A stretch of 64,000 bases of DNA from a virus. Where the stretch lies: positions 74,037-138,036 of IMG/VR virus record IMGVR_UViG_3300036715_002161, one strand, 5' to 3'. Shown in pieces: positions 22,416-56,497 of the stretch. The first letter of the stretch is position 1; every line of letters starts with the position of its first letter. A program made the translations under genes and the position numbers. The notes under the pieces were generated by a model that saw only the letters and a program-made list of their open reading frames with translations, was not told where the DNA came from and made no database searches.

Positions 22416-22929
22416 TTTTAGGTTTGTCAAAGCCCTTTTCCAAACTTTTCGTTTGAAATCAAGTACTTACCTTCCCAACTGACAAACTGACAAACTTTCT
22501 TGAAAAAAATGCCCCCACCTCTCTATAAAAAGCTCTATTAGAACGAAAGTACGACAACCTCTATATATATATATAATATAATATAATATAATATATATAT
22601 ATAGAACAAGGGGTTAGCTCTTTTTTGTAGAGACCCAGGCTTTTCCTTTTATAAAGGTTGGCAAATAATTTTATGCTGTAGACAGAAAAGATGTGCCATT
22701 TTCACGAAAAGTTTTGTCAGTTTGTCAATAATGGGGTTAAGTGCTTGATTTTAAAAAGAAATCCAACTGACAAAACTATTTTCCCATTTGTCAATAACTG
22801 ACAAAGTATAGATAACTCTTTGTTTTAATTAACTTTTTTAATTTGTCCATTTTGTCAATAAAATCCAAAAATTGACAAACTGACAAAATGCCTCTGACAG
22901 ACTTTTGGAGTTTTGTCAGTAATTTGTCA
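22416..22929. repeat. 514-bp inverted repeat, left copy; origin-like (TGACAAA iterons, AT core, two IHF-consensus sites)
   Basis: Reverse complement of 55984-56497 with about 7 substitutions and one AT-unit shift. Confidence 0.97.
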
Positions 22930-22935
22930 TAGACT

Positions 22936-22964
22936 AAAAAAAACCAGAGATGCTTTTCTGGTTT
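22936..22964 (-). terminator. Intrinsic terminator
   Basis: - strand AAACCAGA-AAAGCATC-TCTGGTTT followed by a T run. Confidence 0.75.
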
Positions 22965-23485
22965 CCTTATTCCTTTACTCATCCAATTTATTGAACCCGT
23001 TTATGCATATATCTCTATACTCCAGTACCAGGTACCAGCTCCTGGTTACCGGATCTGGGGGCTCGCCCCGTCAGGATTCTGAAAATATAAGAATAGGTGT
23101 TACACCTATTAACTACTTGTTTACAAATTACTAAAGGAAAAACAGATATACTTAAAAAATTTTACCTATCGCATGGGGGTGCCAGTAGATAGGAAGAGCT
23201 CAATATGCCGTTACAACATACATCTTACCTGTACTAGATACTATATCTATATTCAATTTACAAAATAAGTAAAGACTTTAAAGACCTTCTTTACTTACTT
23301 TGCTGAGATGAACTCAAATTTCTCATATCTCGATATGAGCGTTGGACCGTAGCGGATATATTAAAAAACGTAGCCAGAGGCGTAGTGTTTAATATGGAGC
23401 GGTGGGTCCAGAGCTCATATCGAGAAAGTTAAACGAGGACGTTAAGCATCCTCTAACCACTCATCATGGTAGTACTTCATCCCAA
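22936..23485 (-). ncRNA. Candidate large structured non-coding RNA (~550 nt)
   Basis: Bounded by phage promoter (23490-23518) and terminator; no long sense ORF; about ten hairpins with G-U pairs that work only on the - strand. Confidence 0.65.
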
Positions 23486-23489
23486 AGTC

Positions 23490-23518
23490 CTTATACCAGG
23501 TTTTTAGAAATTATCTAA
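23490..23518 (-). promoter_or_regulatory. Phage promoter TTAGATA-N13-TGGTATAAG
   Basis: One of about 10 copies of the bipartite motif. Confidence 0.8.
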
Positions 23519-23860
23519 ACAGTTCCCGATTTTTTTAAGTACGTTACTTGGGACCCTTTCTTCAAACATTGGAAATCCGTATGCCTCATTATTAGAATTC
23601 CATAAGGCGGTTTCGATATTGAGCATGGTACTAGTTTCATGGTTATAATTGATCAAATGAAACACCTGCCCAGAGTCCATCTTTTCTGTGGCAACTTCTC
23701 TTCCATTTTTAAAACAGAAAAGTTCGTCGTCTCTACAGAGGGCTATGGCCACTTCGGCCCTGTTAGCCTCTGGTTGAAGCTTAACTTTAAACGTTACTCC
23801 ACCCTTAGGCTCCCAACTACTTGTCCTAAGATGTCGATAAAAAATCATTTCTTTGTTCAT
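23504..23860 (-). CDS. Hypothetical conserved phage protein
   Basis: KGGVT...VAIALCRDDELFCFKNGREVA pattern seen in phage proteins. Confidence 0.6.
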   Translation of the reverse strand: MNKEMIFYRHLRTSSWEPKGGVTFKVKLQPEANRAEVAIALCRDDELFCFKNGREVATEKMDSGQVFHLINYNHETSTMLNIETALWNSNNEAYGFPMFEERVPSNVLKKIGNCLDNF

Positions 23861-24329
23861 TTAAGTATCCTAAAAATGCTAAACATATAGCATCGGCTTC
23901 ATGATCTGATTTAAGTTTTTTTCCATAAATCAATTCAGCAGCGGCCAATGAAAACTCTTTGTTGAAGGAATTGCCTGGATTAGTAAAACCATGATCTCTA
24001 ACCAGTATTTTGCACAGGGTTGATTTCCAATCTATGGCCCTTACCATTTGTACTGGTATTTCTTTAGACTCAAAGTAGAATACCAAGGCCCCTATCATCA
24101 TAAGTATATACTCAGATGCTCCTGAATTTACCCCACTATATCCTACATATCTCTCCATTACAACCGAAGAAATTGAGTAGTCTTGGAGCAGGGTTTCCAG
24201 GCCGGAAATAAAACCAGTAATACCTTGGTCCCTTGGTTTGCCACTATACCTAAGGACAACCTCTCCCTCTGGACTGATTATTCCTAGTCCAAAAGAAGCC
24301 CAACCTGGATCAATACCAAGGGCGAACAT
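23826..24329 (-). CDS. ruvC: RuvC-like Holliday junction resolvase
   Basis: LGIDPG, VVMER, DHEADAICLA. Confidence 0.85.
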   Translation of the reverse strand: MFALGIDPGWASFGLGIISPEGEVVLRYSGKPRDQGITGFISGLETLLQDYSISSVVMERYVGYSGVNSGASEYILMMIGALVFYFESKEIPVQMVRAIDWKSTLCKILVRDHGFTNPGNSFNKEFSLAAAELIYGKKLKSDHEADAICLAFLGYLNEQRNDFLSTS

Positions 24330-25320
24330 ACATTATCTCATCAAACTCCCCAAGACTTGGTTGCTGAGTTTTGAAGTACTGACTTCTGGCCACTTCAAAA
24401 CTAATTGGTTTTTCAGGCCTTTTCAATAGATTGGCAGCAATATTTTCAAGACTATTTTGAAAGACAACGGCCACAGTACGAAGCCCTGCCTCATTAGCCA
24501 CTGTCAAAAACTCCTTGCGGGACTTGATTGAAACATGGCAGTTGTCTACAAATCGGACCGGGTCTTCCTGCTTGACAAACTTATTAAACTCCTTTAATAC
24601 TTTACCACTAAAGCCAGAGTCTTCTGTGGAATGTTTCCAGGCTTCTTGGTAATTTCCAGGATACCAGTCCAGTCTAAGGGTGTCCATACTAAAGATGGGC
24701 CCATCCCTTTGACCCAACCAGGTACTCTTGCCGGACCCCGAACATCCAATCATGAATAAAATTTCATTTAATTTTATATCTGGTTCTGGCAAGGTCACAG
24801 GATTTTTAAGCCAAAACTCTGCCAAAAAAATCTTTTCCTTATGATTATCTGAGATTCTTCCTCGGCAGTCAGCCATAATTACCTTGGAGTATAAATCCCA
24901 GTCAATAGTGGCCTGTGCCCACTCAGGCTTGACCTTATAGTATAGGTGATTTTCAATCAGCCATATGACTTTACCCAGGTCAAACCCGAAAGGAATATTA
25001 TCCCTATTGGTAATCAGCCAGTCTTCGGCCAATCGGGCAGAAATAAGCTCATGGCCATAAAATACAGACCTACCTTCTTTATCTCTCTTGGCTTCCGGTT
25101 TGCCAGCATCATGGAAGGCCACGGCCAAAAAGCCTGAGGCCAGGTCAGTATTAGAAAGATCGATGTCGGACCTAAGGTATTCCTGTACTACCATGTCAGT
25201 ATGAACTAGCACTGACTCCTCCCTATGCCATTCAGAGTCTTCCCGACACAGACCCATTATACGAAACAATGGATCCGGCCTCAGAACTTCTTGATAGAAG
25301 TTCAGTAGGGTTTCTTTCAT
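24310..25320 (-). CDS. HD-domain plus P-loop polynucleotide kinase-like protein
   Basis: WHREESVLVHT, FHDAGK, FYGHELISA; GCSGSGKST Walker A. Confidence 0.85.
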   Translation of the reverse strand: MKETLLNFYQEVLRPDPLFRIMGLCREDSEWHREESVLVHTDMVVQEYLRSDIDLSNTDLASGFLAVAFHDAGKPEAKRDKEGRSVFYGHELISARLAEDWLITNRDNIPFGFDLGKVIWLIENHLYYKVKPEWAQATIDWDLYSKVIMADCRGRISDNHKEKIFLAEFWLKNPVTLPEPDIKLNEILFMIGCSGSGKSTWLGQRDGPIFSMDTLRLDWYPGNYQEAWKHSTEDSGFSGKVLKEFNKFVKQEDPVRFVDNCHVSIKSRKEFLTVANEAGLRTVAVVFQNSLENIAANLLKRPEKPISFEVARSQYFKTQQPSLGEFDEIMYVRPWY

Positions 25321-26969
25321 AGGTTGTTTACCCTTTCTCTAATTTCAGTAATAGTTTGAAACTTGGTGATTTCACCATCCTTAAAGACAGTTTCTAGACA
25401 ACCAGTTTTTTCCTGTTCTGGAGTTTGTTGATCGTATAGGACATATTTTCCATTTTCCTTTTCAACTCTTAAAAGACCTTTGGCTGATTTCTTGGTGCCT
25501 GAATCAGTGGCTGGATCTTTTACAAGTTCTACGGATTGACCTTGGATAACTCCATGGGTTGCTTTCATTGCAAATCCCAGAGAGTCTCTGGTTACATAGT
25601 TATAGGTGTATGACCCAATACCAAAAACCACGTTATCACTACAAAACCCTTTTTCCTCCAAACGCCTAAAGATTTCCTCGGCCCGTGCCAATGTAATTGA
25701 ATCACCATAGATCAAACCAATATGGCTATCCAACATCTTATACCCAGTGTCAGTTACAACTCCTCCGAAGATTTCCCAAAGACATTCTACAGCTCCTTTT
25801 AGCTCTGGGGTAAGAGTGGTTATTTCTAAGTTAACAGGATTAATATCATCATAGAGATTAACCCTATATAAGTTACCTTTCCAATGGAAATAAGTAAGGC
25901 CATCGGACCACATTGGGTTTACACCTGTTTCTAATTGAATCTTATCTAAATATCTCAAGGCCTCATTCATGGTATTCCCGACCGCATCAATTATTTTTAC
26001 CCCACAGATAATTTCTACGGGATCGCCAGAGTCAGGTCTTAAGACGGTTTTAGACTGGCCAATACCATTTGCGGGTCTGGCCAAAATCTCCTCCTTAAGC
26101 TCAGGGAGATACTCGGTAATAACCTTCCAAAAATCCCAGGTGTCAGAAACGATAGATACAATGCCTGTAGGATAGACTTCACTAATGAGTCTACGGAAGG
26201 TTTCAATTTCTGTTTCCTTGCTACCCATACACATTACAGAATGTTCCGTCGCAGGGACACTTCCCCCAAGGAAAGTATCCAAACCGTTGTAGTAGTCTTC
26301 TAGGTAGTCTAAGGATGGTACGGTATCAGTTCCTGAGAAACAGGTCAAATGGGCAGCTCCACTCTTGGCTGCATCCTGCATTGAACTCATACCTCTCATT
26401 GAGAAGTCGTGGCATTGCCATCCTTTGAAACCAGGGTGGCCCCCAGTCAGTGCAGAATATTTGTCAACCAGTTTTTTATAACCAAGGGCTGTGGTGGCCG
26501 AGGTAATTGGCTTCCACAATTCTACAGAAAACAAAGTTTCCAGATAGGTAACCAACCAGGCAAAGTGTGGATCGGTATTGGTCACAGTAAAGACCGGAAC
26601 TTTAAAGGGAACCATGCTTCCCTCTGGAAGGGCCTTAATTTCCAAAGGTAAGTATCCAAGTTCCCACAAGGCTTTGATATGATCGGTTCCGACCAGTCCG
26701 GGCCCAAGGGCTTTGTCCATTCTAGCCTTATATCGGTCAAGAATGTTTTCAATTGGTTTCCTGAAGAAATTATCTTTCCACAGGTCAATTAGAGTTGATT
26801 GCATGAACCCTTGAAGGCCGAAGAACAATACTCCTTCTACACCCTCTTGTAGAAAGTAGCTACCACTCCTGGGAGTGAAGTTGGAATAAATCTTTTCAGT
26901 TCCTTTCGGGTACTGGCTGATGTGGCCGGACTTATAGAAGTCGATTTGATGTTCTGGGCGAATATTCAT
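25317..26969 (-). CDS. nadV: Nicotinamide phosphoribosyltransferase-like (Namat/NadV)
   Basis: DFYKSGH, HDFSMRG, SVPATEHS, SIVSDTWD, RPDSGDP, IYGDSIT, KKSAKG. Confidence 0.93.
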   Translation of the reverse strand: MNIRPEHQIDFYKSGHISQYPKGTEKIYSNFTPRSGSYFLQEGVEGVLFFGLQGFMQSTLIDLWKDNFFRKPIENILDRYKARMDKALGPGLVGTDHIKALWELGYLPLEIKALPEGSMVPFKVPVFTVTNTDPHFAWLVTYLETLFSVELWKPITSATTALGYKKLVDKYSALTGGHPGFKGWQCHDFSMRGMSSMQDAAKSGAAHLTCFSGTDTVPSLDYLEDYYNGLDTFLGGSVPATEHSVMCMGSKETEIETFRRLISEVYPTGIVSIVSDTWDFWKVITEYLPELKEEILARPANGIGQSKTVLRPDSGDPVEIICGVKIIDAVGNTMNEALRYLDKIQLETGVNPMWSDGLTYFHWKGNLYRVNLYDDINPVNLEITTLTPELKGAVECLWEIFGGVVTDTGYKMLDSHIGLIYGDSITLARAEEIFRRLEEKGFCSDNVVFGIGSYTYNYVTRDSLGFAMKATHGVIQGQSVELVKDPATDSGTKKSAKGLLRVEKENGKYVLYDQQTPEQEKTGCLETVFKDGEITKFQTITEIRERVNNL

Positions 26970-29121: not shown

Positions 29122-29192
29122 AGATTAGAAATGTTCCAATGTTTCATTCTATTTTCTCCTTGGGTATGGTAAAGTCAGGTAACGTAGTTCAC

Positions 29193-29543
29193 TTACTCTT
29201 CCCACTCAATACTAATACAGGCAATAAGACCTGGCCAACGATTACATGAAGCTCGTGCTTCTTCTTCGGTTTTATAAATAGACCTACCTGCCACTTCATC
29301 TTTATATATATTGATCCAGCCTTCCTTCTTAACTGGAGCCATGAATAGATCCATGAGAGGGTGGGGACTTTCGTTTGAGATACGTCCAGTCACTGTGAAA
29401 GTGATGATCTGCCCAAGTATTACTGCACAAACCTTGTGGCTCCCATCTACTGAGGGGAAGTATGCAATATCAGTCACCAGTTTTTTATCGCCAGTCATTA
29501 CTTTTGCACCGGCAAGTGCTTCTTCTAAAACAAATGGTTTCAT
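29193..29543 (-). CDS. MKPF-family paralog 1
   Basis: Shares MKPF..ALAGAKV, TDIAY, DLFMAP, EGWINI, IEWEE with five other ORFs. Confidence 0.9.
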   Translation of the reverse strand: MKPFVLEEALAGAKVMTGDKKLVTDIAYFPSVDGSHKVCAVILGQIITFTVTGRISNESPHPLMDLFMAPVKKEGWINIYKDEVAGRSIYKTEEEARASCNRWPGLIACISIEWEE

Positions 29544-29729
29544 TTCAATATCCTTCTACTATTATTAAATGGGTTTGGAACTACGCGGCTAATTAGGTCA
29601 GCAACTGAATGCCACCCAGCCTGTGCTTCCGCGAACTGCTCCGCAGCTTCCCATGCGTTGTCGGCCTGCAATAAATCAAATGTTTCCAAATTATCTAGTT
29701 CCATTGCTTGATTGCTCATTTCAATCCCG

Positions 29730-30074
29730 CTAGATTTCCCACTTAATACGAATACAGTCGATAGGACCTAGGCCACCTGAAGCTCGTGCTTCTCCTTCGG
29801 TTTTATATATAAACTGCCCAGTCATTCTACCAATATGGATATTGATCCAACCTTCTTTCTTAACTGGAGCCATGAATAGATCCAGGAGAGGGTTGGGACT
29901 ATATTTTGAGATACGTCCAGTCTCTGTGAAATAACGGATTCCCCCGTCTATTACTGCACCAACCTTGTAGGGACTGTTTACTGAAGGTAAATACGCAATA
30001 TCAGTTGCCGGTTTTCCAAGGCCGGTTATTACTTTTGCACCGGCCAAGGCTGCTTCTAAATTAAAAGGTTTCAT
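29730..30074 (-). CDS. MKPF-family paralog 2
   Basis: Same conserved blocks. Confidence 0.9.
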   Translation of the reverse strand: MKPFNLEAALAGAKVITGLGKPATDIAYLPSVNSPYKVGAVIDGGIRYFTETGRISKYSPNPLLDLFMAPVKKEGWINIHIGRMTGQFIYKTEGEARASGGLGPIDCIRIKWEI

Positions 30075-30086
30075 TATATTTTCTCC

Positions 30087-30437
30087 CTACTCTTCACACT
30101 CTTCCCACTCAATACGAACACAGGCAATCCGACCTGAGCTGGAAGCTTGTGCTTCTTCTTCGGTTTTATGTACACAATACCCAAGCTTCCTACTCTTATA
30201 GATATTGATCCAGCCTTCACTCTTAACTGGAGCCATAAATAGATCACAGATAAAGTCGTGTTTTTTGTCGCGGAAATGTCCATCCACTGTGAAAAAGCGG
30301 ACTCCTCCATTTATTACTGCACCAACCTTGTAGACGCTATTTTCTGATGGGAAATACGCAATATCAGTTGCCGGTTCTCCACAGCCGGTTATTACTTTTG
30401 CACCGGCCAGAGCTTCTTCTAAATTAAAAGGTTTCAT
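30087..30437 (-). CDS. MKPF-family paralog 3
   Basis: Same conserved blocks. Confidence 0.9.
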   Translation of the reverse strand: MKPFNLEEALAGAKVITGCGEPATDIAYFPSENSVYKVGAVINGGVRFFTVDGHFRDKKHDFICDLFMAPVKSEGWINIYKSRKLGYCVHKTEEEAQASSSGRIACVRIEWEECEE

Positions 30438-30547
30438 TCTGTTTCCTATTGAAAGTTTCTACTTGACCGGTTAAAGAATTGTTTGACCAGGCCGCGATAT
30501 ACTATATTCCCTTTTGAAGTTAATACTGTTGCGCCTAGTCTTTATAC

Positions 30548-30623
30548 TGGTGGGACCGCCCAGGGATGATCTGGGATAATACAAATTATGAGTTTGCTGC
30601 ATTACCAGTTATGCTACAGTCCC
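30548..30623 (-). tRNA. tRNA with CAT anticodon (Met or Ile2), encoded CCA, atypical T-loop
   Basis: Acceptor GGGACTG/CGGTCCC, anticodon arm GCAAA-CTCATAA-TTTGT, T arm CCCAG-ATCATCC-CTGGG, ends ACCA. Confidence 0.85.
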
Positions 30624-30625
30624 TT

Positions 30626-30702
30626 TGGTCCGACAGACAGGATTTGAACCTGTAACCTACGGATTAGAAATCCGTTGCGCTATCCGGTTGTGCTACTGTC
30701 GG
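30626..30702 (-). tRNA. tRNA-Arg(TCT), encoded CCA
   Basis: Acceptor CCGACAG/CTGTCGG, anticodon arm ACGGA-TTTCTAA-TCCGT, GGTTCAAATCC. Confidence 0.95.
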
Positions 30703-30727
30703 TATAATAATATTTCCTTCTATGTTT

Positions 30728-30757
30728 CTTATACCAAGTTTACCTCTCAGTATCTAA
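30728..30757 (-). promoter_or_regulatory. Phage promoter TTAGATA-N14-TGGTATAAG driving the tRNA pair
   Basis: Exact motif 25 nt upstream of tRNA-Arg. Confidence 0.8.
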
Positions 30758-31102
30758 TTCGGTAACCAGACTCTTTAGGTCGTAAAAAACCTTGGCCCCA
30801 TTAGCCATTACCAGGTTGGCCACGGCCTGTAGTGACCTGTCCAGTAGAGGCCCAAATCTCAAAAACACCAAATTGGGTCTTTTATTACTATCATCTACTT
30901 CGGCCACAGAATATACTCCGGTCATTTCTGTAGTTAAGACGTATAGACAGATGTCACATTCCCGCCTCTGTCTAATTTCTTCGGCCTGGCACTCCGGAGT
31001 CCAGTCTGGGACCAACGGATTAAAGTAATCGCATTTGAGCATAGGAATAAGCTCGTCTCTCCAATTGGAGCCAGCACAGGTACCACCTAGGAATATTTTC
31101 AT
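30740..31102 (-). CDS. Nucleoside 2-deoxyribosyltransferase-like protein
   Basis: KIFLGGTC...WRDELI...YFNP...W...E...CDICLYVLT...GVYSVAE. Confidence 0.75.
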   Translation of the reverse strand: MKIFLGGTCAGSNWRDELIPMLKCDYFNPLVPDWTPECQAEEIRQRRECDICLYVLTTEMTGVYSVAEVDDSNKRPNLVFLRFGPLLDRSLQAVANLVMANGAKVFYDLKSLVTELDTER

Positions 31103-31341
31103 AGGCCAATCGGTCTCTTGTCCAAACCTGGAACGGCTAGTAGTTCAGCCAAGTCATCGACGTGCAGGCAGTCACACAGACAGGCATAGTCGTTTGCCGC
31201 CTGGATTACGGCAATATTACCATTGCAATAGCTACTACCTGGGGTGGCACTATGAAGTACTCCGAAGGAGACTACCTTGCCTCCGTCCAGTTTTACAATT
31301 TTGTCACCATTTTGGGCCTCACGGCCATTTCTGTAATGCAT
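31099..31341 (-). CDS. Hypothetical Cys-containing protein
   Basis: 80-aa ORF with AAGGA RBS; stop overlaps next start. Confidence 0.65.
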   Translation of the reverse strand: MHYRNGREAQNGDKIVKLDGGKVVSFGVLHSATPGSSYCNGNIAVIQAANDYACLCDCLHVDDLAELLAVPGLDKRPIGL

Positions 31342-31618
31342 ATTAGATTCCTTTCATTGGCCTATTCAGCCCTTAAACCCTGCTCAGTTTGACACATCAA
31401 TCTTTCCTGGTCCTCCCAGGTTACTAATATAATACCACTATTGAATTTAAAAAGTCTATATTTAAATTTTTCATATCTTACTCTGAAAGAAGTATTTAAA
31501 GTCCATAGTGGATTAGAAGTTTCTTGCCAGCCAAAAACTCTACCCAGCTGCCTTTAAACTAGGCCTTGGCAACTTCAAGAGGGCATTGTGGGATTTCCGG
31601 CACTTAATTTCATTCTGT

Positions 31619-31963
31619 TTACTCCTCCCACTCAATACGAACACAGGCGATAATATTTGAGCCAGCTGAAGCTTGTGCTTCTTTTTCGGTTTTATATATA
31701 TTCCCCATTGACTTTCCACCCTTATAGATATTGATCCAGCCTTCACTCTTAACGGGAGCCATGAATAGATCCAGGAAAGCGTTGGGACATTCCTTAGATA
31801 GACATCCAGCCACTGTGAAGTAAGAGGTTTCTCCGTTTATTATTGCATAAACCTTGTAGGGACTGTTTACTGAAGGTAAATACGCAATATCAGTTACCGG
31901 TTTTTTCTCGCCAGTCATTACTTTTGCACAGGCCAAGGCTGCTTCTAAATTAAATGGTTTCAT
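31619..31963 (-). CDS. MKPF-family paralog 4
   Basis: Same conserved blocks. Confidence 0.9.
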   Translation of the reverse strand: MKPFNLEAALACAKVMTGEKKPVTDIAYLPSVNSPYKVYAIINGETSYFTVAGCLSKECPNAFLDLFMAPVKSEGWINIYKGGKSMGNIYKTEKEAQASAGSNIIACVRIEWEE

Positions 31964-31975
31964 TATATTTTCTCC

Positions 31976-32323
31976 TTACTCCTCCCACTCAATACGAACA
32001 CAGTCTATCGGACCTGTCCAACCTGAAGCTAGTATTGCATCTTCTTTGGTTTTATAAATACACTCTCCTGGCTTTTCATCTTTATAGATATTGATCCAGC
32101 CTTCCTTTATAACTGGAGCCATGAATAGATCCATGAGAAGGTTGGGGTTTTCGTCTGAGATACGTCCAGTCACTGTGAAAGTGGCGATATGCCCGTATAT
32201 TACTGTGTAAACCTTGTGGCTCCCACTTATCGAGGGGAAGTATGCAATATCAGTCACCGGTTTTTTACTGCCGGTTATTACTTTTGCACCGGCCAAGGCT
32301 GCTTCTAAATTAAAAGGCTTCAT
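31976..32323 (-). CDS. MKPF-family paralog 5
   Basis: Same conserved blocks. Confidence 0.9.
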   Translation of the reverse strand: MKPFNLEAALAGAKVITGSKKPVTDIAYFPSISGSHKVYTVIYGHIATFTVTGRISDENPNLLMDLFMAPVIKEGWINIYKDEKPGECIYKTKEDAILASGWTGPIDCVRIEWEE

Positions 32324-32335
32324 TATATTTTCTCC

Positions 32336-32683
32336 TTACTCTTCCCACTCAATATGAACACAGGCAATAAGATTTGAGCTGGATGAAGCTCGTGCTTCTT
32401 CTTCGGTTTTATATAAACAATGCCCAATCCTCCCACCTTTATAGATATTGATCCAGCCTTCACTCATAACTGGAGCCATAAATAGATCACGGGTAAAGTC
32501 GTTGTTTCCGCTGTGGAATAAATATCCAGCCTCTGTGTACTGAGAGACTTCCATATCTATTACTGCATAAACCCTGTATCTACAGTTCGATGATGGTAAA
32601 TACGCAATATCAGTTACCGGTTTTCCAAGGCCGTTCATTACTTTTGCACCGGCAAGTGCTGCTTCTAAATTAAATGGTTTCAT
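32336..32683 (-). CDS. MKPF-family paralog 6
   Basis: Same conserved blocks; directly downstream of DNA polymerase. Confidence 0.9.
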   Translation of the reverse strand: MKPFNLEAALAGAKVMNGLGKPVTDIAYLPSSNCRYRVYAVIDMEVSQYTEAGYLFHSGNNDFTRDLFMAPVMSEGWINIYKGGRIGHCLYKTEEEARASSSSNLIACVHIEWEE

Positions 32684-32716
32684 TCTGTTTCCTATCGAAA
32701 GTTTCTACTTGCATAG

Positions 32717-35515
32717 TCATCCTTTTAAATCAAACAAAACAGCCTCAATTTCAGGCTGGGTAACACCTCTATGTACTGACTTTAATTTCCCCCAGTTAAA
32801 TCCAATTTCGGCATCGCTACCAATAGGTAGGTCAAGCCAATCAAAGGTTTCAACCAACAGATCATCCATGCATTGGAATATAAGTTCAATTGCTTCGGCT
32901 ACTCTTGGGATTGGTACTTCTAACTCAAGTGAGTCATATACCGTAGATGTAGCCATACCTCCCAAGGATTTAACTGCTTCACTGGCCCTGCCGAAAGCAA
33001 ACAAGCCAGCACTACTGGTTGGACTTTGAATAAGAACATTCTGTGAATTTCGTAAGCCTCCTTTGTATACTGCCGTTCTACGAAATGGTGGCAGGGTGCC
33101 AAACTGCATTTTCCTAAATCCAAATACCGTTACCACAAAATGATTAAACTCGGCCATCTTATGGGCATTACTGATAAATACCTCAATACCTGGGTATGTC
33201 ACAAAGTACAAGGCAATCAAACGCTCTGCCTCTGACAGTGGAATATCTAGGTTATGAGCAATGCCGTTTGCGGTTGAGCCGTAGATAATACCGAACGTCA
33301 AGGCTTTTGCCACCTGTCTTTTATTCTTATAATCTGAATACAGAGGGTTACGATCATCCTTAAGCACTACCACAAACTCTTCATACGGTATACCAAACAT
33401 TTGACCTGCTGAAAAGCTATGAAAGTCCATTCCCTTTCTAATGGCTTCTAATAATAATGGATCTTTGCTCAATGCCCCTAGAACTTTAACCTCGGCAGAA
33501 CTGAAGTCAAAAGTTACAAAGGCATTACCCTGTTCTACACAATAACACTCTCGTATGTTATACCCATGTTTTGCCCTGGGAATCTGGGTCAAATTAGGAT
33601 CCTCACCGCTTATACGAAATGAACTGGTACCGTGCAAATTATAAGACGGGTGAATACGACCATCTCTTTTTACAAAGTTTAAGTAGTCTTTGATAAAAGT
33701 CCTCCAGGTGGAGGCAATGTCATTGCGCTTGGCCAACTGCCGGAGCCATTCCTCTTGGGTAAGACTATACAATGCTCTGATGGCATCACCATCCGTAGAG
33801 GGGTCACCCATCTTAGTAAACTTCTGAGGGGTAAACCCTTTGACCTCATACAGGAATTTGGCCAATTCTGTCCCAGAATCCAGATTGACATCGCCAGTAA
33901 CTAGTTTGATTTCTCTTTCCAGGCTGTCCATGTCAGCCCTCATCCTACGATCCATGTCACGGTTCAAGGCCTTATCATACTTGATCCCATTTATCTCCAG
34001 GTCAGTAATGAAGTCAAAGGCTGGACCTGTATACTTTTCATATGTCTCCATTATACTGGGAGCCAATACCTCTCTTTTTTTAGACTCTGGACCATAAAAC
34101 TCCGTATACTTTGGAGTAGTATATAGCCTGGTCCCAAAACTAGCGGCAAGCTGGCTTGTGGCCAAACAGTCGATGCCAGCATACAGTAAAAGGTCTTCCA
34201 CAGGGAAATCCTCATAAGTCCTATATACCGGCTTACTTGGACTTAGCAGGCTGTCTTCTTCTTCCTCTCCTTCTTCTTCCAGATCTTTGGCCTTAGTCAG
34301 GTCTGGTAATTTGTCCTCATATCCCCCAAGCTCAGTCTCGGGGATCCAATCTACTACGGCCTGTTTTAGACCATACATTCCCTGTAGACCAGAGTTGATC
34401 ATATGAAGAATCAGCATAGTATCGAATACTATATTTCGTATCTTTACACCAGTTGTATGCCAAGTATAAAGATAATCAAACTTCATATTATGACCTACCT
34501 TACCTATCGCTGGGTCAGTCAGAATTTCAGCCACTCCAGGCCAGATTAGGTCGGGGTCATACCAAGTATTTTCCCTATGCCATAAAGGAAAGACCACGGC
34601 CTTATAAATACCGTTTTCTTTATACCCAAACTGGGCGGTCAAGAGTTTGGCCTCAGAGTCCATAGGGTCAAGTCCTGTGGTTTCAGTATCATAGCTGAGT
34701 AATACATTGTTCCTACCAAGGGCCAATACGTGGGCTATTGCCTCCTGGGCTTCAACTTCAGTTCTGGGTATCCAGATATTTTCACCAGCTCTGGCCAAAG
34801 CTGAGTCCAGGTCAGGAACTCCAAGCTCTCCTTGTATAATTCTACGAACTTTGTTTAGATCGCGTAGGATAACGCTGTAGAAGTCAGGGCCCCAAAAAGC
34901 TCCGGTGGAGTTCTGTCTCAACATCATCAGTATTCTCGGGTGAAGAGTCAGTACAACTGGAATATCTTTATATGTAAATATATCACCAAGATTATTCTTA
35001 TTAGACTTCTTAAGACCCAGGGCTTTGGTAACCCCCGTGGTCAGACTTACAATAACCTTAGGCTTAAGCCGATCTATCTCGCTGAAGAGATAAGGTCTAC
35101 ACTTACGCATAGTAACTTCACTAGGAGCCTTGCCTTTTACCAGGTCAGCTGCATCTAGACTACACTTTAGCAGGCTGGTTACCTTATAAGTAATGCCTGA
35201 ATCAGTAAAGGCGGCCTTGGCCAGGTATTCGATAACTCCAAGGTTTATCTTCTCTATGGCATAACCAGGCCTTTTGAACTTAGGATCGTCCAAGGCCTTA
35301 TAATCTTGAATTATGAGAACATCCAGAGGTTTTTCTGGGTTTACTTTTAATAGGTAAAAAGAGGATGGAGCTTTTTGTTTAAGGGTACAAACTTTGTCAC
35401 ACCATTGTGGTGATATTGTATCAAAGTTCTCTTTTGGGATAATTGCATCTTCTACGGCTTTTGTAGTCTTTCTGGAGTATAGTTCTTCCAAGGAAAGAGT
35501 AGTTAATTTCGCCAT
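32717..35515 (-). CDS. polA: Family A DNA polymerase with N-terminal uracil-DNA glycosylase-like domain and 3'-5' exonuclease
   Basis: UDG-like LKC...KCRPYLFSEIDRLKPKVIV...TLHP; exo YDTETTG, GHNMKFD, YAGID; pol DFSSAE, RQVAKALTFGIIYG, TVYDS. Confidence 0.93.
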   Translation of the reverse strand: MAKLTTLSLEELYSRKTTKAVEDAIIPKENFDTISPQWCDKVCTLKQKAPSSFYLLKVNPEKPLDVLIIQDYKALDDPKFKRPGYAIEKINLGVIEYLAKAAFTDSGITYKVTSLLKCSLDAADLVKGKAPSEVTMRKCRPYLFSEIDRLKPKVIVSLTTGVTKALGLKKSNKNNLGDIFTYKDIPVVLTLHPRILMMLRQNSTGAFWGPDFYSVILRDLNKVRRIIQGELGVPDLDSALARAGENIWIPRTEVEAQEAIAHVLALGRNNVLLSYDTETTGLDPMDSEAKLLTAQFGYKENGIYKAVVFPLWHRENTWYDPDLIWPGVAEILTDPAIGKVGHNMKFDYLYTWHTTGVKIRNIVFDTMLILHMINSGLQGMYGLKQAVVDWIPETELGGYEDKLPDLTKAKDLEEEGEEEEDSLLSPSKPVYRTYEDFPVEDLLLYAGIDCLATSQLAASFGTRLYTTPKYTEFYGPESKKREVLAPSIMETYEKYTGPAFDFITDLEINGIKYDKALNRDMDRRMRADMDSLEREIKLVTGDVNLDSGTELAKFLYEVKGFTPQKFTKMGDPSTDGDAIRALYSLTQEEWLRQLAKRNDIASTWRTFIKDYLNFVKRDGRIHPSYNLHGTSSFRISGEDPNLTQIPRAKHGYNIRECYCVEQGNAFVTFDFSSAEVKVLGALSKDPLLLEAIRKGMDFHSFSAGQMFGIPYEEFVVVLKDDRNPLYSDYKNKRQVAKALTFGIIYGSTANGIAHNLDIPLSEAERLIALYFVTYPGIEVFISNAHKMAEFNHFVVTVFGFRKMQFGTLPPFRRTAVYKGGLRNSQNVLIQSPTSSAGLFAFGRASEAVKSLGGMATSTVYDSLELEVPIPRVAEAIELIFQCMDDLLVETFDWLDLPIGSDAEIGFNWGKLKSVHRGVTQPEIEAVLFDLKG

Positions 35516-46786: not shown

Positions 46787-47557
46787 ATGGATTTAAGTAA
46801 ATACTATTCCGAAATCTCCAGATACAAGTCAATAGGGGCAGAAGAGGAGGTAGCCTTGTTTAAAACGTTTCAAGCTACTACAACTACAGAAAAAGAAAAA
46901 ACCAAGATTAAGGATCGTATAATCTCCTCTAACCTAAGGTTTGCCTTTAAGGAGGCCAAGAAGTTTTCAAAGAATGATCCTATATTATTTGAGGATTTGA
47001 TCTGTGCCGCCAACGAAGGATTATTGGTAGGTTTTGAAAAGTTCAATCCGGCCAATGGTGTTAGGTATTTATCATATGCAGGTTGGTGGGTAAAGCAAAG
47101 GATATTAGATGAGATGTCAAAAAAGAGAATAGTTTCTTTACCTAAATCAAAGCAGCAGCTGGCCACTAGAATTCAAAAAGCCAAAGATAGAGACGAATCC
47201 CTATCCTTGGCCGATTTAGTAAAGGTCTTTCCAGAGGATAACCCCAAGGACATTAAGGAACTTTCCGATACTAGATACCTTACGTATTATATGGAGGACC
47301 TCAGTGATGATCTTCTAGAAATAGATCCAATAGGTGAACAAGTTCAAATTAACATTGATAATAATAAGGTTTGGAAATCTGTCTCTGATCTACCCTCTCC
47401 GCACAGGGAAGTAATTGCCCAACTATTTGGGCTTGATGATGGGGTCGAGCAGTCGATTACAAACATATGTAAGTCAATGAAAGTTTCTAAGGAAACGGTA
47501 CGACAGATTAAAGCGGAGGGCCTCGAAATGCTCACAAGAAAGCTGGGCCCTACTTAG
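46787..47557 (+). CDS. Sigma-70 family sigma factor (RpoD/RpoS-like, regions 1.2-4)
   Basis: LSKYYSEI, SNLRFAFKEAKKF, DLICAANEGL..GFEKF, YAGWWVKQRI, region 4 LFGLDDG...VSKETVRQI. Confidence 0.92.
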   Translation: MDLSKYYSEISRYKSIGAEEEVALFKTFQATTTTEKEKTKIKDRIISSNLRFAFKEAKKFSKNDPILFEDLICAANEGLLVGFEKFNPANGVRYLSYAGWWVKQRILDEMSKKRIVSLPKSKQQLATRIQKAKDRDESLSLADLVKVFPEDNPKDIKELSDTRYLTYYMEDLSDDLLEIDPIGEQVQINIDNNKVWKSVSDLPSPHREVIAQLFGLDDGVEQSITNICKSMKVSKETVRQIKAEGLEMLTRKLGPT

Positions 47558-51753: not shown

Positions 51754-51816
51754 GGAGCAGCGGTCTAATAAAACGACCGCAACAAAAGAAAAAAGTAAAC
51801 TCTACTCTCTACCTTA

Positions 51817-51846: not shown

Positions 51847-52470
51847 TTATTGTTCAGCTGCTTCAAGTACTTCTCTTTCTGCATCCAGGTCCCGGTTTAG
51901 GGCTTTTTGAGTTGAAAAACCTTCTGGGTACCGGGCCTTTAATTTCTTAATATTAGCCTCTCTGGCATTGGCCACCGACAAGTCTTGGAGAAGACAGAAG
52001 AAGTTAAGTGAGTTTGAAACCTCTAGTAGAATTTCCATTATTCTGGAAGTATCTATCGGGCTGGTGATTATAATCTCAAGCATGGAAGAAGCCTCTCTCA
52101 TGCCTACCGACAATACTCCAACCAAGGCCCTCTGTTTAGCTGTGGCGTCGGACAGATCATATAACTTCCTCAGATCTACAAATTCGTCATTCTGCATAAG
52201 TGCCTCATGCTGGTCCATATCTACTACCTGACCTCTGATTTTTTCCAAGGCCAAATATCCAAGAGCCAAGTACCAGTAGACATCACCTACTTCTTCTACT
52301 ACGTTTACCAGGTCAAGCTTTTTATTGTAGAATCGCTCACGCTTTAAGGCATCAACTAACTCTCCGATTTCAGTCATAAGCCCGTAGGCAGTATGCTCTA
52401 GGTCGTTGTCTACGGTAGAATCTTTGAGATTGGTATTGGCCGACAGAAGCGCATATTCTTTGAAATTCAT
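51847..52470 (-). CDS. MazG-like nucleotide pyrophosphohydrolase
   Basis: GLMTEIGELVDALKR, EEVGDVYWY, NIKKLKARYPEGF. Confidence 0.88.
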   Translation of the reverse strand: MNFKEYALLSANTNLKDSTVDNDLEHTAYGLMTEIGELVDALKRERFYNKKLDLVNVVEEVGDVYWYLALGYLALEKIRGQVVDMDQHEALMQNDEFVDLRKLYDLSDATAKQRALVGVLSVGMREASSMLEIIITSPIDTSRIMEILLEVSNSLNFFCLLQDLSVANAREANIKKLKARYPEGFSTQKALNRDLDAEREVLEAAEQ

Positions 52471-52479
52471 TTTTAGGTC

Positions 52480-53511
52480 CTATAAGGAAAATTTAAAATT
52501 AGTAGTGTCATTTGTCAGAGTACCGACTAGATAGCTTGACAATTCAACTTCTTGTGGTGCTACTTGAGTATTAATATTACCATACCACTTCTCAACCCAG
52601 GGAATTGGATGGGTTAATTTATGGTGACCCTTAGGACTAAGTCCAATGGCCGCCTTTCTACGTGGCAGTAAATACTCTACGTATTGTATCAGGATTTTCT
52701 CATTTAGGCCAAGAATACTTCCCTGACTAAATAGATATTTAACCCAGTCGATTTCCTGTTGACCGGCCTGGTCAAAAATTTCAGTAGCCCGATTCCTGTT
52801 GTCACCTATGATTTGGACAAAGTCTGGGTCGTCTTTTGGCAAGGCTTTAAGTATGTGTTGGACCAAGGCCATATGCTGGGTTTCGTCCCTTGAAATGAGC
52901 TTGACAACCTTAGCCGAAGCCTCTACTTTACCACGTTCGGCAAAGGAAAAAGTGCAGGCAAAACTTGTGGGAAACCGTATTGCCTCTAAGGCATTGGCCG
53001 AAATCAAGGCAAGGTAAAGATTCTCCTTATTTGGGTTGTCAATCAAGGCATCATAGGCATGGGTCACTGCTGTGGCGCAATCTACAATCGGCACAATATT
53101 AGGTAGGTCGTCAAATATTACAGAAGGGTCAGAGTATATTGCCCGGATTATATGGGTATAACTTTCGCTATGAATACTTTCAAAGAAAGACCAGGTCAAA
53201 ATACAGTTCTCTAAACTAGGATCAGTACAATGAGGTAAAAAGGCCATACTAGGAGCCCGACCCTGGATAGAATCCAGTAGAATCTGTCTCTTTAGATTAC
53301 TGGTAAAGACAAACTGTTCCTCTTCGGACAAACTTTCAAAACTACTTTTTTCACCAGACCAATCCACTTCTACTTCTGGATTCCAGTAGAAAGACTTCAT
53401 CTTAGTATTCAATTTATAAAAGATAGGGTGAGGCAAGACATCATATCTTGCAATCCCCCTACCCTCCCCAAAAAATAGCTTTGGAGAAAAAGGGTCAAGG
53501 TTAAGAATCAT
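52480..53511 (-). CDS. nrdB: Ribonucleotide reductase class Ia beta subunit
   Basis: LLDSIQGR, ESIHSESY, LEAIRF, RDETQH, QVAPQEVELSSY. Confidence 0.96.
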   Translation of the reverse strand: MILNLDPFSPKLFFGEGRGIARYDVLPHPIFYKLNTKMKSFYWNPEVEVDWSGEKSSFESLSEEEQFVFTSNLKRQILLDSIQGRAPSMAFLPHCTDPSLENCILTWSFFESIHSESYTHIIRAIYSDPSVIFDDLPNIVPIVDCATAVTHAYDALIDNPNKENLYLALISANALEAIRFPTSFACTFSFAERGKVEASAKVVKLISRDETQHMALVQHILKALPKDDPDFVQIIGDNRNRATEIFDQAGQQEIDWVKYLFSQGSILGLNEKILIQYVEYLLPRRKAAIGLSPKGHHKLTHPIPWVEKWYGNINTQVAPQEVELSSYLVGTLTNDTTNFKFSL

Positions 53512-55766
53512 TAAATTTTACAAGCTCCACTTTCACAGGAAGTATCTTCTTCTACATTTGGGTCTTCGTCCAGGACGTTGCTGTAATACAAACATTTAGT
53601 CCCAAGCTTATAGGCCAATAAAATATCACTCAATATTACTCCAGTAGAAATTTGCTGTTTGGCCGGGTTATAAGTAGTATTAGTACTGATGGCCTGATCA
53701 ATAAACTTCTGCATTATTGCCAAGGTTTTTAAGTAGTCTGAGACTGGGACATCCCAAGCTAACTGGTAGGCATGGTTGAGTTTGTTAATCTCCGGTACTA
53801 CCTGGGCCATAGTACCATCTTTAGACCCTTTAATTGTAATTAATCCTTTTGGAGGCTCGATTCCATTAGTCTCATTGGCCAACTGACTAGATGTCTCACT
53901 AGGCATAAGGGCCATCAAGGTAGAATTACGAATGCCATGTTTTAGTACCCGCTCCTTAAGGCTATCCCAATCCATCTTCAAGGTATATTCCAAACCAAAG
54001 GTGGCAAGATCCTTTGGAAATATACCTTGGGAGTACCTGGTTGGCTTAGAGAATTTGTAGTCTGGATTTTCAGAGGCCAGGTCAATAGAGGCCTTAGTCA
54101 AGTAATAAGCCATCTGTTCCATTTTGTCGTGGACGGCCTGAAGAGTTTCAGGGCTACCCCAGACCAAACTGTTCTTGGCCAAGTAATGGGCAAAACCGAT
54201 TATGCCAATACCTAAGGGGCGATATTCCTGAGTATGGAGCCGGGCTTCTTCCAAAGGATAATCTTGGTAGTCCAGGAGTCGGTCTAAGGCCCTTACTGCC
54301 ATGTTACAGGCCAATTCCATTTCCGATTCAGTATCAATCTTACCCCAGTTTAGGGCTGACAGGGTACACAATGCAATACGGCCCTTGGTTTGATCCTTAG
54401 ACATGTGCTCAGTAACTTGCAAGATTTCCGTGCAAAGGTTAGTCATTTTTACCGATTCCAAGAATGGGCTTTGACTATTAACGTGGTCTGCATTCAATAT
54501 ATAAATACGGCCAGTTTCAAATCTTTCTGTGGCCAGTTTGGTGAAGACGTCAATTGCCGCCATTGTTCTTTTAGTCTTAGTAGGATCTTTTTCATATTGC
54601 TCATATAAAACTTTAAAATTTTCAGGTGGGCCATAAAAAGCTTCATATAGGTCAGGTACTTCTTCAGGACTAAAAAAGGTAATATCTCCTTTTTGAATCA
54701 ATCTTTCGTACATCGTCTTATTTAAGTGAACACAGTAGTCTACCGTTCTTATACGGTTTTCTTCCGTACCTTTTACGTTTTTCAATTCAATCAAGGCAGG
54801 GAATTCTAAATGAAAAATAGGCCAATTCATTGTACAACTTGCCCCTCTAATTGCACCTTGACTACAGGACTTAAGGGCTGCATTGAAGTATTTTGCAAAA
54901 GGTATTACCCCAGTAGAGACTGCATCCCCTTTTCTAACCTTTTGACCTTGGGCCCGGATGGCCCCGATATTAAGACCTATTCCAGCCTTGCGAGAGGCAT
55001 AGTCTACAATGGCCGAAGCTGCTGCATTAATACTATCCCGACTATCCCCTGAAGAAATCAAGACGCAACTACTAAACTGTTTTTCAGAAGTCCGGAGACC
55101 GGCCATTAAAGGAGTAGGTAGAGAGACATAGTGCTGAGACACCAAGTCATAGTAAACCTTGATTGCTTGCATACGTTCTTCTCCTGAGTACTCATGAAAG
55201 AGAATTGCCGACACAAGGATGTAGGGTATTTGATAGGTTTCAAAGACCTGTCTGGTCTGCCTGTCTTGGACTAGATATTTCTTATGCATCTGTTCAGAAC
55301 CGGCATATCTAAAAAGATCGTCCCGGGAATGATCGATAAATGAGTCGATTGTTTTCCACTCCTGGTCGGAGTACATATCCCTAAGATCAGGATCATAGTA
55401 ACCTAGGGCGGTATTAGTCTCAATAAACCATATCAAAGGTTTTACTAAATAAGACCCACAAGTATCCTTGCGGACTCCAAGCCAACGTAGCCGAGCCGCC
55501 ACATGGTCATAGCTAGGAGTATCCTCCGAAATAAGGTCGGCAGCCGCCTTAATTGTACTCTCGTTAATTGAAGTGGTAGTAATACCCTCATAGAACTTGG
55601 TATTAGCCATGAGCTCGATGGCCGACACTGAAGTATTCTTAATTGCCTTTAGCCCTAGATTGGGATCACCATTACAAACACGGTCCAAGACCAGATGAAT
55701 CTTATTAAGGTCAATGTCTTGAAGACCCCCACTACGTTTTTGTACTTGCATCTTTTGTTGTCTCAT
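53511..55766 (-). CDS. nrdA: Ribonucleotide reductase class Ia alpha subunit with ATP cone
   Basis: VQKRSG, QFSSCVLI, TNLCTEI, LMPSETSSQ, LYY, CESGACKI. Confidence 0.97.
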   Translation of the reverse strand: MRQQKMQVQKRSGGLQDIDLNKIHLVLDRVCNGDPNLGLKAIKNTSVSAIELMANTKFYEGITTTSINESTIKAAADLISEDTPSYDHVAARLRWLGVRKDTCGSYLVKPLIWFIETNTALGYYDPDLRDMYSDQEWKTIDSFIDHSRDDLFRYAGSEQMHKKYLVQDRQTRQVFETYQIPYILVSAILFHEYSGEERMQAIKVYYDLVSQHYVSLPTPLMAGLRTSEKQFSSCVLISSGDSRDSINAAASAIVDYASRKAGIGLNIGAIRAQGQKVRKGDAVSTGVIPFAKYFNAALKSCSQGAIRGASCTMNWPIFHLEFPALIELKNVKGTEENRIRTVDYCVHLNKTMYERLIQKGDITFFSPEEVPDLYEAFYGPPENFKVLYEQYEKDPTKTKRTMAAIDVFTKLATERFETGRIYILNADHVNSQSPFLESVKMTNLCTEILQVTEHMSKDQTKGRIALCTLSALNWGKIDTESEMELACNMAVRALDRLLDYQDYPLEEARLHTQEYRPLGIGIIGFAHYLAKNSLVWGSPETLQAVHDKMEQMAYYLTKASIDLASENPDYKFSKPTRYSQGIFPKDLATFGLEYTLKMDWDSLKERVLKHGIRNSTLMALMPSETSSQLANETNGIEPPKGLITIKGSKDGTMAQVVPEINKLNHAYQLAWDVPVSDYLKTLAIMQKFIDQAISTNTTYNPAKQQISTGVILSDILLAYKLGTKCLYYSNVLDEDPNVEEDTSCESGACKI

Positions 55767-55983
55767 TAAAACCCCAAGCTTAAAGTATTATGGAATCAAA
55801 GTAAATAGGCCCATGGAAAAATTAGTTTCTTTTCTACCCAAGGTCAAGTCTCTAAAGTAGTTTGGATTTTTATAAAGGCTGATTCCACAGCCATAAGAAG
55901 TGAACCGAACGATTTCTACAGTAAATCTACCATCTTTAAGTTTTGCATCGAAAGGGTATTGCAGCATTGTTAAATCTCCTAGG

Positions 55984-56497
55984 TGACAAGTTACTGACAA
56001 AACTCCAAAAGTCTGTCAGAGGCATTTTGTCAGTTTGTCAATTTTTGGATTTTATTGACAAAATGGACAAATTAAAAAAGTTAATTAAAACAAAGAGTTA
56101 TCTATACTTTGTCAATAATTGACAAATGGGAAAATAGTTTTGTCAGTTGGATTTCTTTTTAAAATCAAGCACTTAACCCCATTATTGACAAACTGACAAA
56201 ACTTTTCGTGAAAATGTCACATCTTTTCTGTCTACAGCATAAAATTATTTGCCAACCTCTATAAAAGGAAAAGCCTGGGTCTCTACAAAAAAGAGCTAAC
56301 CCCTTGTTCTATATATATATATATTATATTATATTATATTATATATATATAGAGGTTGTCATACTTTCGTTCTAATAGAGCTTTTTATAGAGAGGTGGGG
56401 GCATTTTTTTCAAGAAAGTTTGTCAGTTTGTCAGTTGGGAAGGTAAGTACTTGATTTCAAACGAAAAGTTTGGAAAATGGCTTTGACAAACCTAAAA
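55984..56497. repeat. 514-bp inverted repeat, right copy
   Basis: Reverse complement of 22416-22929. Confidence 0.97.

Follow-up and report, generated by a model that had tools for sequence, protein, structure and literature searches.

Near-identical palindromic units around a phage replication module are candidate dispersed origins of replication

What are long, almost perfect inverted repeats doing on either side of a phage replication module? The question is raised by a 64,000-nt stretch of an uncultured virus (IMG/VR record IMGVR_UViG_3300036715_002161, positions 74,037 to 138,036), in which two 514-bp sequences in opposite orientation enclose a 33-kb block of replication and nucleotide-metabolism genes. 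The stretch, hereafter the window, is the last 64 kb of the full 138,036-bp record, the source genome G000; coordinates refer to the window by default, and those marked "genome" to the full record. A first-pass annotation of the window had taken the pair for two oppositely oriented origins and possibly for a system that isomerises or amplifies the genome. From sequence features and comparison with relatives, we tentatively favour a different emphasis: the repeats may be dispersed replication origins or origin/enhancer elements, similar to the homologous regions (hrs) of baculoviruses and homogenised by gene conversion.

A repeat scan of the whole window returned one long inverted pair, with 514-nt arms that are 97% complementary and lie 33,054 nt apart. 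Compared without gaps, the two copies are mismatched in 15 of 514 columns, 8 of which fall in the (AATAT)4 core and derive from a single shifted AT dinucleotide. In the alignment, they differ by 7 substitutions and by this one AT dinucleotide, placed on the opposite side of the (AATAT)4 centre, and are about 98% alike, just as had been described for 22416-22929 and the reverse complement of 55984-56497. Both copies had also been called non-coding, and indeed no open reading frame (ORF) of at least 70 aa lies inside either; two ORFs merely touch the last 17 nt. The count of two copies had to be corrected, since the genome holds three, the third situated outside the window, 18.4 kb before its start. 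This copy has 3 mismatches in 514 positions to the left-hand member of the pair (99.4% identity) and 14 in 514 to the right-hand one. The three units were named A, B and C:

genome 55153-55666 (outside the window), plus strand: unit copy A, 514 bp, direct to B and inverted to C
22416..22929 (genome 96452-96965), plus strand: unit copy B, 514 bp, non-coding, at ~3x contig depth in 4/4 runs
55984..56497 (genome 130020-130533), minus strand: unit copy C, inverted relative to B

The copies are genuine. Depth and flanks were read from Logan contigs (not raw or long reads) of four public runs on microbial mats and sediments, in all of which repeat-only contigs stood at 2.3-3.2 times the flank depth (158.7 vs. 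54-59 in run X1, 29 vs. 9.2-10.9 in X2, 54.8 vs. 17 in X3 and 39.8 vs. 12.5-17.3 in X4). Three different flanks leave each end of the repeat in 4/4 runs, and for the right side, which has a clean consensus, the other two belong to A and C. Roughly threefold depth together with three flanks per end indicates exactly three copies and no misassembly. The contigs break at the repeat, and the joins of left to right flanks are not readable from them. The record's own ends, genome 1-178 and 137859-138036 (window 63823-64000), overlap directly over 178 bp at 99.4% identity inside coding sequence, so that the assembly is probably circular and complete at ~137.9 kb; the record is classed as linear and 78% complete despite this overlap.

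The internal anatomy of the unit carries most of the argument. Each unit contains an imperfect palindrome of ~300 nt with 57-nt arms that are 74% complementary, and the predicted single-strand DNA fold of the whole unit reaches -86.7 kcal/mol (z = -9.8), a value that 0 of 100 shuffles attained. A 42-bp core of pure A/T, an IHF-consensus site in each arm and arrays of the heptamer TGACAAA, with a tandem pair in each arm in mirror orientation, are located in B and C as follows:

22452..22755, strandless: palindrome of B, with arms 22452-22508 and 22699-22755, each with an IHF-consensus site and a tandem TGACAAA pair
22457..22469, plus strand: IHF-consensus match WATCAANNNNTTR, outer left arm of B
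22562..22603, strandless: A/T core of B, a 42-bp pure A/T near-palindrome and candidate unwinding element
22738..22750, minus strand: IHF-consensus match, right arm of B
22756..22929, strandless: right-hand extension of B, asymmetric, ~170 bp, with TGACAAA/TTTGTCA in both orientations, single or paired, at an 8-11 bp period
56158..56461, strandless: palindrome of C, with arms 56158-56214 and 56405-56461
56163..56175, plus strand: IHF-consensus match in C
56310..56351, strandless: A/T core of C, 42-bp pure A/T, with one AT dinucleotide on the opposite side of (AATAT)4
56444..56456, minus strand: IHF-consensus match in C

These elements are strongly concentrated in the units. Every unit holds 12-13 TGACAAA heptamers, and 41 of the 134 genome-wide occurrences of TGACAA fall within the 1542 bp of the three units, where 1.5 would be expected (~27-fold enrichment). 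Likewise, of the 15 IHF-consensus matches in the genome, the units account for 6, two per unit and one per arm, all perfect. No A/T run in G000 is longer than the 42-bp cores of the three units, the next in rank measuring 20 bp, and the three 80-bp windows with the lowest GC are also theirs. The units also carry an inverted, CCACCTC-like box, CCCCCACCTCTC. As in iteron origins, a cluster of short sites, here confined to the units, adjoins an A/T-rich candidate unwinding element. DnaA boxes, a sigma-54 promoter, a Pho box and a protelomerase-type site were judged by eye in the unit and dropped as poor fits.

Does the same element occur elsewhere? Distant relatives were reached through a search for NrdA homologues, after which whole records were compared. 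The closest NrdA is only 62% identical, so G000 has no close relatives. The comparison covered the uncultured IMG/VR genomes G001 (181 kb, complete), G002, G003, G006 and G007 and the cultured Salmonella phage Arash and Vibrio phage D69. From the 197 ORFs of G000, 69 are common to G001, 53 to Arash and 51 to D69, with identities of roughly 27-59%. Searches with nucleotide probes from the unit returned little: zero matches among 50,697 phage records and, for an exact 31-mer, 0 matches in IMG/VR and JGI metagenome contigs, searches in which the phage's own records were possibly left out. A 15-mer, TGACAAACTGACAAA, gave single chance matches in at least 101 stretches of IMG/VR and is too unspecific to be of use. 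The 336-aa neighbour protein had a single IMG/VR match, at 29% only, and the sole Rfam match within window 22300-23600 was a chance miRNA (E = 0.85).

At the level of design, the element recurs. The units of these phages all have heptamers in mirrored arrays, a centre rich in A/T and an inverted box of the CCACCTC type, and IHF-consensus sites are frequent; heptamer and box differ from lineage to lineage:

G000: heptamer TGACAAA, box CCCCCACCTCTC
G001-3: heptamer CTGGACA, box CCATACCTCAC
Arash: heptamer GTTACAA, box CCCACCTCAAGA
D69: heptamers GTTACA and TGTAGCA, box not recognised

Three units are present in D69 and in both G001 and G002, where they measure 400-600 bp, and five in Arash, all direct, near 26.7, 66.5, 100.2, 138.6 and 173.4 kb; the partial contig G006 contains two, while in G003 and G007 a single unit is internal and each contig end falls within a partial one. 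When each genome was scanned for its own heptamer, clusters (at least 3 within 60 bp) outside the units numbered 0 in all four genomes tested (G000, G001, Arash and D69). In G001, too, the unit cores take the first three ranks both among A/T runs by length and among windows by low GC, and in Arash the units supply 5 of the 7 lowest-GC windows. A pair of boxes at the fixed spacing was found at 16 places on 10 IMG/VR contigs, and the 6 examined in full all belong to this lineage. A gene of the HU/IHF family was detected in 5/5 relatives tested and lies 0.1-2.3 kb from a unit in 4 of them.

Units A and B occupy the same syntenic places as units a and b of G001, whose proteins are only ~45% identical to those of G000, and all three positions are kept across G001, G002 and G003. 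The third unit has nrdA and a 146-aa gene as its neighbours in G000 and is located between the polymerase and the primase-helicase in G001; in Arash, replication genes stand on both sides of a unit. Gene-order breakpoints between G000 and G001 are found at units (genome 55684-59529 and window 53511-55766): the LigD-phosphoesterase/537-aa block to the right of A is elsewhere and inverted in G001, and nrdAB adjoins unit C only in G000.

The units also bear on existing records. In G003 and G007, two independent IMG/VR contigs, the end units are in inverted orientation and the 46-kb structural segment between them is missing; the units explain these assembly breaks, and such repeats lower completeness estimates. 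They likewise explain small ORFs called across them in Arash (gp115c, gp116c and gp171c). Positions 66705-66980 (plus strand) of the Arash record OQ632216.1, ~100 bp from a unit, hold an open 91-aa frame of the HU/IHF family (PF00216, E = 1.9e-29), instead of which the record annotates the overlapping 168-aa minus-strand ORF gp116c.

The orientation of the units bears on the reading suggested by the window alone, in which the function of the inverted pair is inversion of the 33-kb replication module, or conversion of theta replication into double rolling-circle amplification through recombination of the inverted origins. The contents of the module are as first listed: a RuvC-like resolvase, nrdA, nrdB, a family A DNA polymerase, a DnaG-type primase-helicase and an exonuclease, along with two helicases, a sigma factor, tRNA-Met and tRNA-Arg. 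A flip would find ample substrate for homologous recombination in 514 bp of inverted sequence at 98% identity, a RuvC-like resolvase and an exonuclease are encoded by the phage, and transcription would be unaffected by an inversion, since the partner at every unit edge stays the same. The model is also in line with the G000/G001 breakpoints described above (the block right of A and nrdAB beside C) and with Campylobacter phage CP21, where modules separated by repeat regions are reported to have inverted (PMC4546147). It does not, however, account for a third copy that is direct to B, nor for Arash, in which all 5 copies are direct. The orientation patterns are ++- in G000, +-- in G001, +-+ in D69 and +++++ in Arash; as the pattern differs across four lineages, the inverted arrangement is not required, and the enclosed genes differ as well. 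A bracketed replication module is therefore not upheld as the functional design.

Direct signs of inversion were likewise missing. No fixed inversion was seen among the collinear G001, G002 and G006, nor in G003 and G007 over the covered parts, and when D181 and D148 were set against D69 for collinearity, markers in two of the three inter-unit segments kept the same strand and place. In G001, G002 and G006 and in the D69 group, assembly could have yielded either orientation. Since an assembly reports one path, the absence of inversions is weak evidence against free flip-flop. The first-pass annotation had noted no site-specific recombinase in the window, and the observation extends to the whole 138-kb genome, which had no match to the tyrosine or serine recombinase families (PF00589, PF00239), with controls positive in 14 and 12 of 14 genomes; homologous recombination could substitute for a dedicated enzyme. 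On balance, we regard flipping or amplification as the purpose of the repeats as improbable.

Copies from one genome resemble one another much more closely than they do those of other genomes. Within-genome identity is 98-99.4% in G000, 79-88% in G001, 83-92% in G002, 86-96% in Arash and 77-82% in D69, whereas between lineages, with proteins 30-59% identical, only fragments align (E = 0.005-0.03). The collinear genomes G001 and G002, ~80-85% identical, allow a finer comparison: unit cores of G002 paralogues are 87.5-93.3% identical vs. 80.7-91.8% for G001/G002 orthologues, and some core blocks in these two genomes are common to paralogues only, forming mosaics. Homogenisation by gene conversion is thus supported by the sequence comparison, and the earlier suggestion of ongoing homogenisation, with its expectation of greater similarity within than between genomes, is borne out.

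Near-identity might also reflect recent spread to three sites of a selfish, non-autonomous element resembling a miniature inverted-repeat transposable element (MITE). Such an origin would suit copies that are 98-99.4% identical, palindrome-rich and non-coding, with sharp ends in otherwise unrelated DNA. Against it, terminal inverted repeats and target-site duplications were lacking at the three copies, the genome is devoid of the recombinase families searched for, and a 31-nt stretch of the unit had no exact match in IMG/VR or JGI beyond its own records. Furthermore, A and B are syntenic with units of relatives whose proteins are ~45% identical, no variable presence was seen, and design and copy number are conserved across the family. 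We consider a MITE-like element highly improbable.

The units are distributed around the genome with greater regularity than chance would give. Expressed as the chance that random points on a circle would leave a smallest gap at least as large as observed, the probabilities are 2e-5 for Arash (gaps of 39.7, 33.8, 38.4, 34.8 and 34.2 kb), 0.005 for D69 (57.8, 60.1 and 68.8 kb), 0.055 for G001 (46.3, 58.9 and 76.3 kb) and 0.07 for G000 (41.3, 33.6 and 63.0 kb); these tests are not independent, because the lineages are related and some positions orthologous. Even spacing is what multiple origins would favour. Mirrored site arrays at the most meltable DNA, accompanied by bending sites and present in even, homogenised copies, point to a DNA-opening nucleoprotein machine.

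Regular spacing would equally suit a structural role, in which the units are anchor or bending sites where an HU-like or partition-like protein organises loops or condenses the DNA ahead of packaging, or form a cruciform that is cut for recombination-dependent replication. The IHF-consensus sites, the HU-family genes near units in relatives, a core predicted to be able to fold into a cruciform and a RuvC-like gene 0.9 kb from B are all compatible with this explanation, and the data do not separate it from the origin reading. G000, however, has no HU gene, and we know of no precedent for such a role in tailed phages; a structural function appears rather unlikely to us.

The units lie where operons begin or end, their edges adjoining promoters that point outward or terminators of transcription coming in. 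Unit A is flanked by leftward genes, whose class promoter lies 10-40 bp beyond its left edge, and by rightward genes. At B and C, the following features abut the edges:

22046..22390, minus strand: 114-aa gene, starting 26 nt beyond the left edge of B, no class promoter
22941..22964, strandless: terminator hairpin for leftward transcription arriving at B, T-run on the minus strand, 12 nt beyond the unit's right edge
53511..55968, minus strand: small ORF and nrdA, with ribosome-binding site and ATG ~15 nt past the edge of C, an operon head without class promoter
56502..56522, minus strand: terminator hairpin of the incoming leftward operon, its T-run running into the edge of C

Two promoter classes of the phage were recognised. 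The first, TTAGAT-N17-TGGTATAAG, has an extended -10 and accounts for 27 TGGTATAA sites in G000, 25/27 of them on the minus strand; one such site is at window 23490-23530 (minus strand) and 26 more are found elsewhere in G000, and in G001 all 41/41 TGGTATAA[G/C] sites are on the minus strand. The second class, AGGTTAAAATA, stands upstream of plus-strand structural genes and is probably a late class read by the phage sigma factor. The gene for this factor (Sigma70_r2 + r4; 46787-47557, plus strand) is the sole plus-strand gene in the minus-strand replication block, and homologues are present in G001 and Arash. Between the TGGTATAAG promoter and the terminator abutting B, ~550 nt (22936-23518, minus strand) contain no ORF and had no Rfam match; this stretch would be transcribed toward unit B.

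Neither TTAGAT-N17-TGGTATAAG nor AGGTTAAAATA occurs inside a unit. Accordingly, the idea that the heptamers are sigma -35 elements or belong to the phage's own promoter classes was rejected, both motifs being absent from the unit. Three genes start 15-26 nt beyond a unit edge with neither class in front of them, so the units would have to contain promoters of a third kind. The 114-aa gene at 22046..22390 would then be transcribed from inside unit B, and the promoter of the small ORF-nrdA operon would lie inside unit C. Scans with the sigma-70 consensus in and around the units gave no excess over shuffles (13 vs. 9.9 and 6 vs. 5.7).

Could the units be transcription-control hubs only, with heptamers as operators or enhancer-like sites through which a phage regulator switches the outward edge promoters, bending by IHF/HU, an A/T core that is promoter DNA, and no origin role? 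Their place at operon heads and ends, the three edge genes without class promoter, the leftward TGGTATAAG-type promoter that abuts the left edge of A and of all three G001 units, an 11/12 match (ATGACA-18-TATAAT) directed into the core of copy C, and the phage's own sigma factor would all be expected of such hubs. TF1, an HU-like protein of phage SPO1, acts on transcription. Conversely, the 27 (G000) and 41 (G001) TGGTATAAG sites and the separate late motif have no heptamer array beside them, and sigma-70-type matches in and around the units do not rise above shuffles. Nor does control of transcription account for the even spacing, the 300-nt palindrome or the presence of the genome's most meltable DNA in the units. 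A purely transcriptional role is, in our estimation, unlikely, although it deserves more weight than the other alternatives.

We therefore return to dispersed origins. Each copy would be a bidirectional origin and would probably govern the edge promoters as well. Under this proposal, a phage-encoded protein would bind the mirrored heptamer arrays (TGACAAA in G000), and IHF/HU-type proteins, namely host IHF in G000 and the phage HU-like protein in relatives, would bend the arms. The CCACCTC-type boxes and the 42-bp A/T palindrome would then melt or extrude, allowing the primase-helicase and the family A polymerase to be loaded. Because all copies would have to fit one binding protein and would recombine with one another, gene conversion would hold the copies of one genome close to identity and leave those of different genomes free to drift apart. 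That B and C point in opposite directions would be incidental; it may permit an occasional 33-kb inversion by homologous recombination, and this would not be the purpose of the element.

Several observations weigh against dispersed origins. The first-pass proposal of oppositely oriented origins stands as regards origin-like anatomy (mirrored heptamers, IHF-consensus sites and the A/T core). The GC-skew inflection that it named as a check is absent: there is no skew minimum or inflection at B or C, and skew is dominated by the coding strand throughout. The ~3x depth of the Logan contigs equals the expectation from copy number alone and is uninformative on origin firing. Genes diverge at A only, those on both sides of B and of C running in the same direction, and the putative promoters inside the units fit a purely transcriptional role equally well. 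G000 itself has no HU/IHF gene. A neighbouring initiator was searched for, and no conserved gene adjoins the units across genomes; nor does a heptamer cluster precede any gene, so that no autoregulated initiator shows itself. Pfam families were missing for 7 of 10 candidate proteins, the remainder being a LigD phosphoesterase, an Rv2179c-like exoribonuclease and the sigma factor. The primase-helicase, which is an initiator candidate only by analogy with the alpha protein of phage P4, has no PDB relative by sequence. Another candidate, the G000 ORF at 11153-11932, which is conserved near an Arash unit, proved to be thymidylate synthase and was set aside.

A wider proposition is correspondingly more doubtful: that an undescribed family of 138-187-kb myoviruses, including Arash and D69, starts replication at 3-5 even, homogenised palindromic origins that double as promoter hubs, with inverted pairs flipping the segment between them to give isomers, as a phage counterpart of baculovirus hrs and herpesvirus oriS/oriL. 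The origins of large lytic phages are poorly defined, and here one recognisable cis element, present 3-5 times per genome, can be followed across a deep phage lineage in which the heptamers co-vary and the copies evolve in concert. Should the units prove to be origins, multi-origin replication in tailed phages would gain a sequence signature, the upkeep of similarity among dispersed origins could be studied in a natural system, and a parallel with large eukaryotic DNA viruses would emerge. With Arash and D69 in culture, the origin question is open to direct test.

In the literature searched, no conserved, homogenised heptamer/A-T palindrome at 3-5 copies per genome was described for tailed phages; a review on T4 and the papers on baculoviruses came closest. 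The element goes unmentioned in the main text of the Arash paper; the words "repeat" and "origin" occur there, none of them concerning the units. Already in print are module-dividing repeats in Campylobacter group II phages (PMC4546147) and the multiple origins of T4 (PMC3016281). The remark in the first-pass annotation that the architecture was not known in tailed phages was consequently too strong, given the repeat-separated modules of the former, two of them inverted in CP21 (PMC4546147).

Further features of the window were recorded. The family A DNA polymerase (32717-35515, minus strand) carries an N-terminal domain of the uracil-DNA glycosylase superfamily; the homologue in Arash bears no annotation other than uracil DNA glycosylase, and the homologous region of G001 is split into ORFs of 419 and 569 aa. 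At 29187-32711 lie five to six diverged, gene-sized 350-nt repeats (63-80% identity) encoding 114-116-aa paralogues, in two groups around two tRNA genes. Two tandem 66-bp copies with 95% identity (16741-16872) are part of a 408-aa ORF in the structural region.

How, finally, do the units compare with characterised systems? Archaeal origins composed of origin recognition boxes and DNA unwinding elements show a like combination of features. Herpes simplex virus (HSV) has three origins, oriL and two oriS copies in inverted repeats, which are A/T-centred palindromes with inverted initiator boxes and lie between transcription units. The phage element likewise has three copies in G000, among them the inverted pair B and C, with an A/T-centred palindrome and inverted boxes between transcription units. 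The HSV origins, however, measure 45-144 bp, and oriS sits inside large isomerising inverted repeats and is served by the initiator UL9, whereas the likeness of the phage units is one of layout.

Iteron origins, such as lambda ori, P4 ori/crr, SPP1 oriL/oriR, R6K and pSC101, place short initiator sites beside an A/T-rich stretch, often with IHF sites. In P4 and SPP1, two separated cis regions are bound by one initiator, which in P4 is a primase-helicase. For the lambda type, work on the O protein and its iterons is available (PMC7466680). Classical iterons are direct repeats of 17-22 bp beside or inside the initiator gene, unlike the 7-nt mirrored heptamers of the phage units, which have no adjacent initiator gene and occur in 3-5 near-identical copies tens of kb apart. 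The origins of T4 are not known to share one sequence or to carry iteron arrays like those of the units. As a large lytic phage, T4 nevertheless uses several origins, with initiation tied to transcription into an unwinding element through an R-loop (PMC3016281).

The Campylobacter phages CP21, CP220 and CPt10, myoviruses of ~180 kb, are divided by repeat regions RR1-RR4 into four modules, two of which are inverted in CP21 (PMC4546147). Like the units, RR1-RR4 are similar bipartite repeats with direct or inverted arms that divide a large myovirus genome and break its assembly. They differ in that each is a kilobase-scale array with as many as 18 units of 72-86 bp, that some of the regions enclose genes, and that the genomes are rich in transposase and homing-endonuclease genes; the parts of PMC4546147 available to us report no A/T core, IHF sites, heptamer design or function for them.

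For how the units may work, the best match by analogy is provided by the baculovirus hrs. These regions, too, are more alike within than between genomes and are implicated in recombination. The phage units share with them both this pattern of identity and the distribution of several dispersed, intergenic, non-coding copies per genome, each an A/T-rich imperfect palindrome. The hrs are reported to act as origins as well as enhancers (PMC4535591; PMC6669502). Homology between the two is absent: hrs are arrays of 2-8 short repeats (~60-70 bp) bound by IE-1 in insect viruses, whereas each phage unit is one quasi-palindrome of 200-600 bp with 7-nt heptamers and IHF-type sites.

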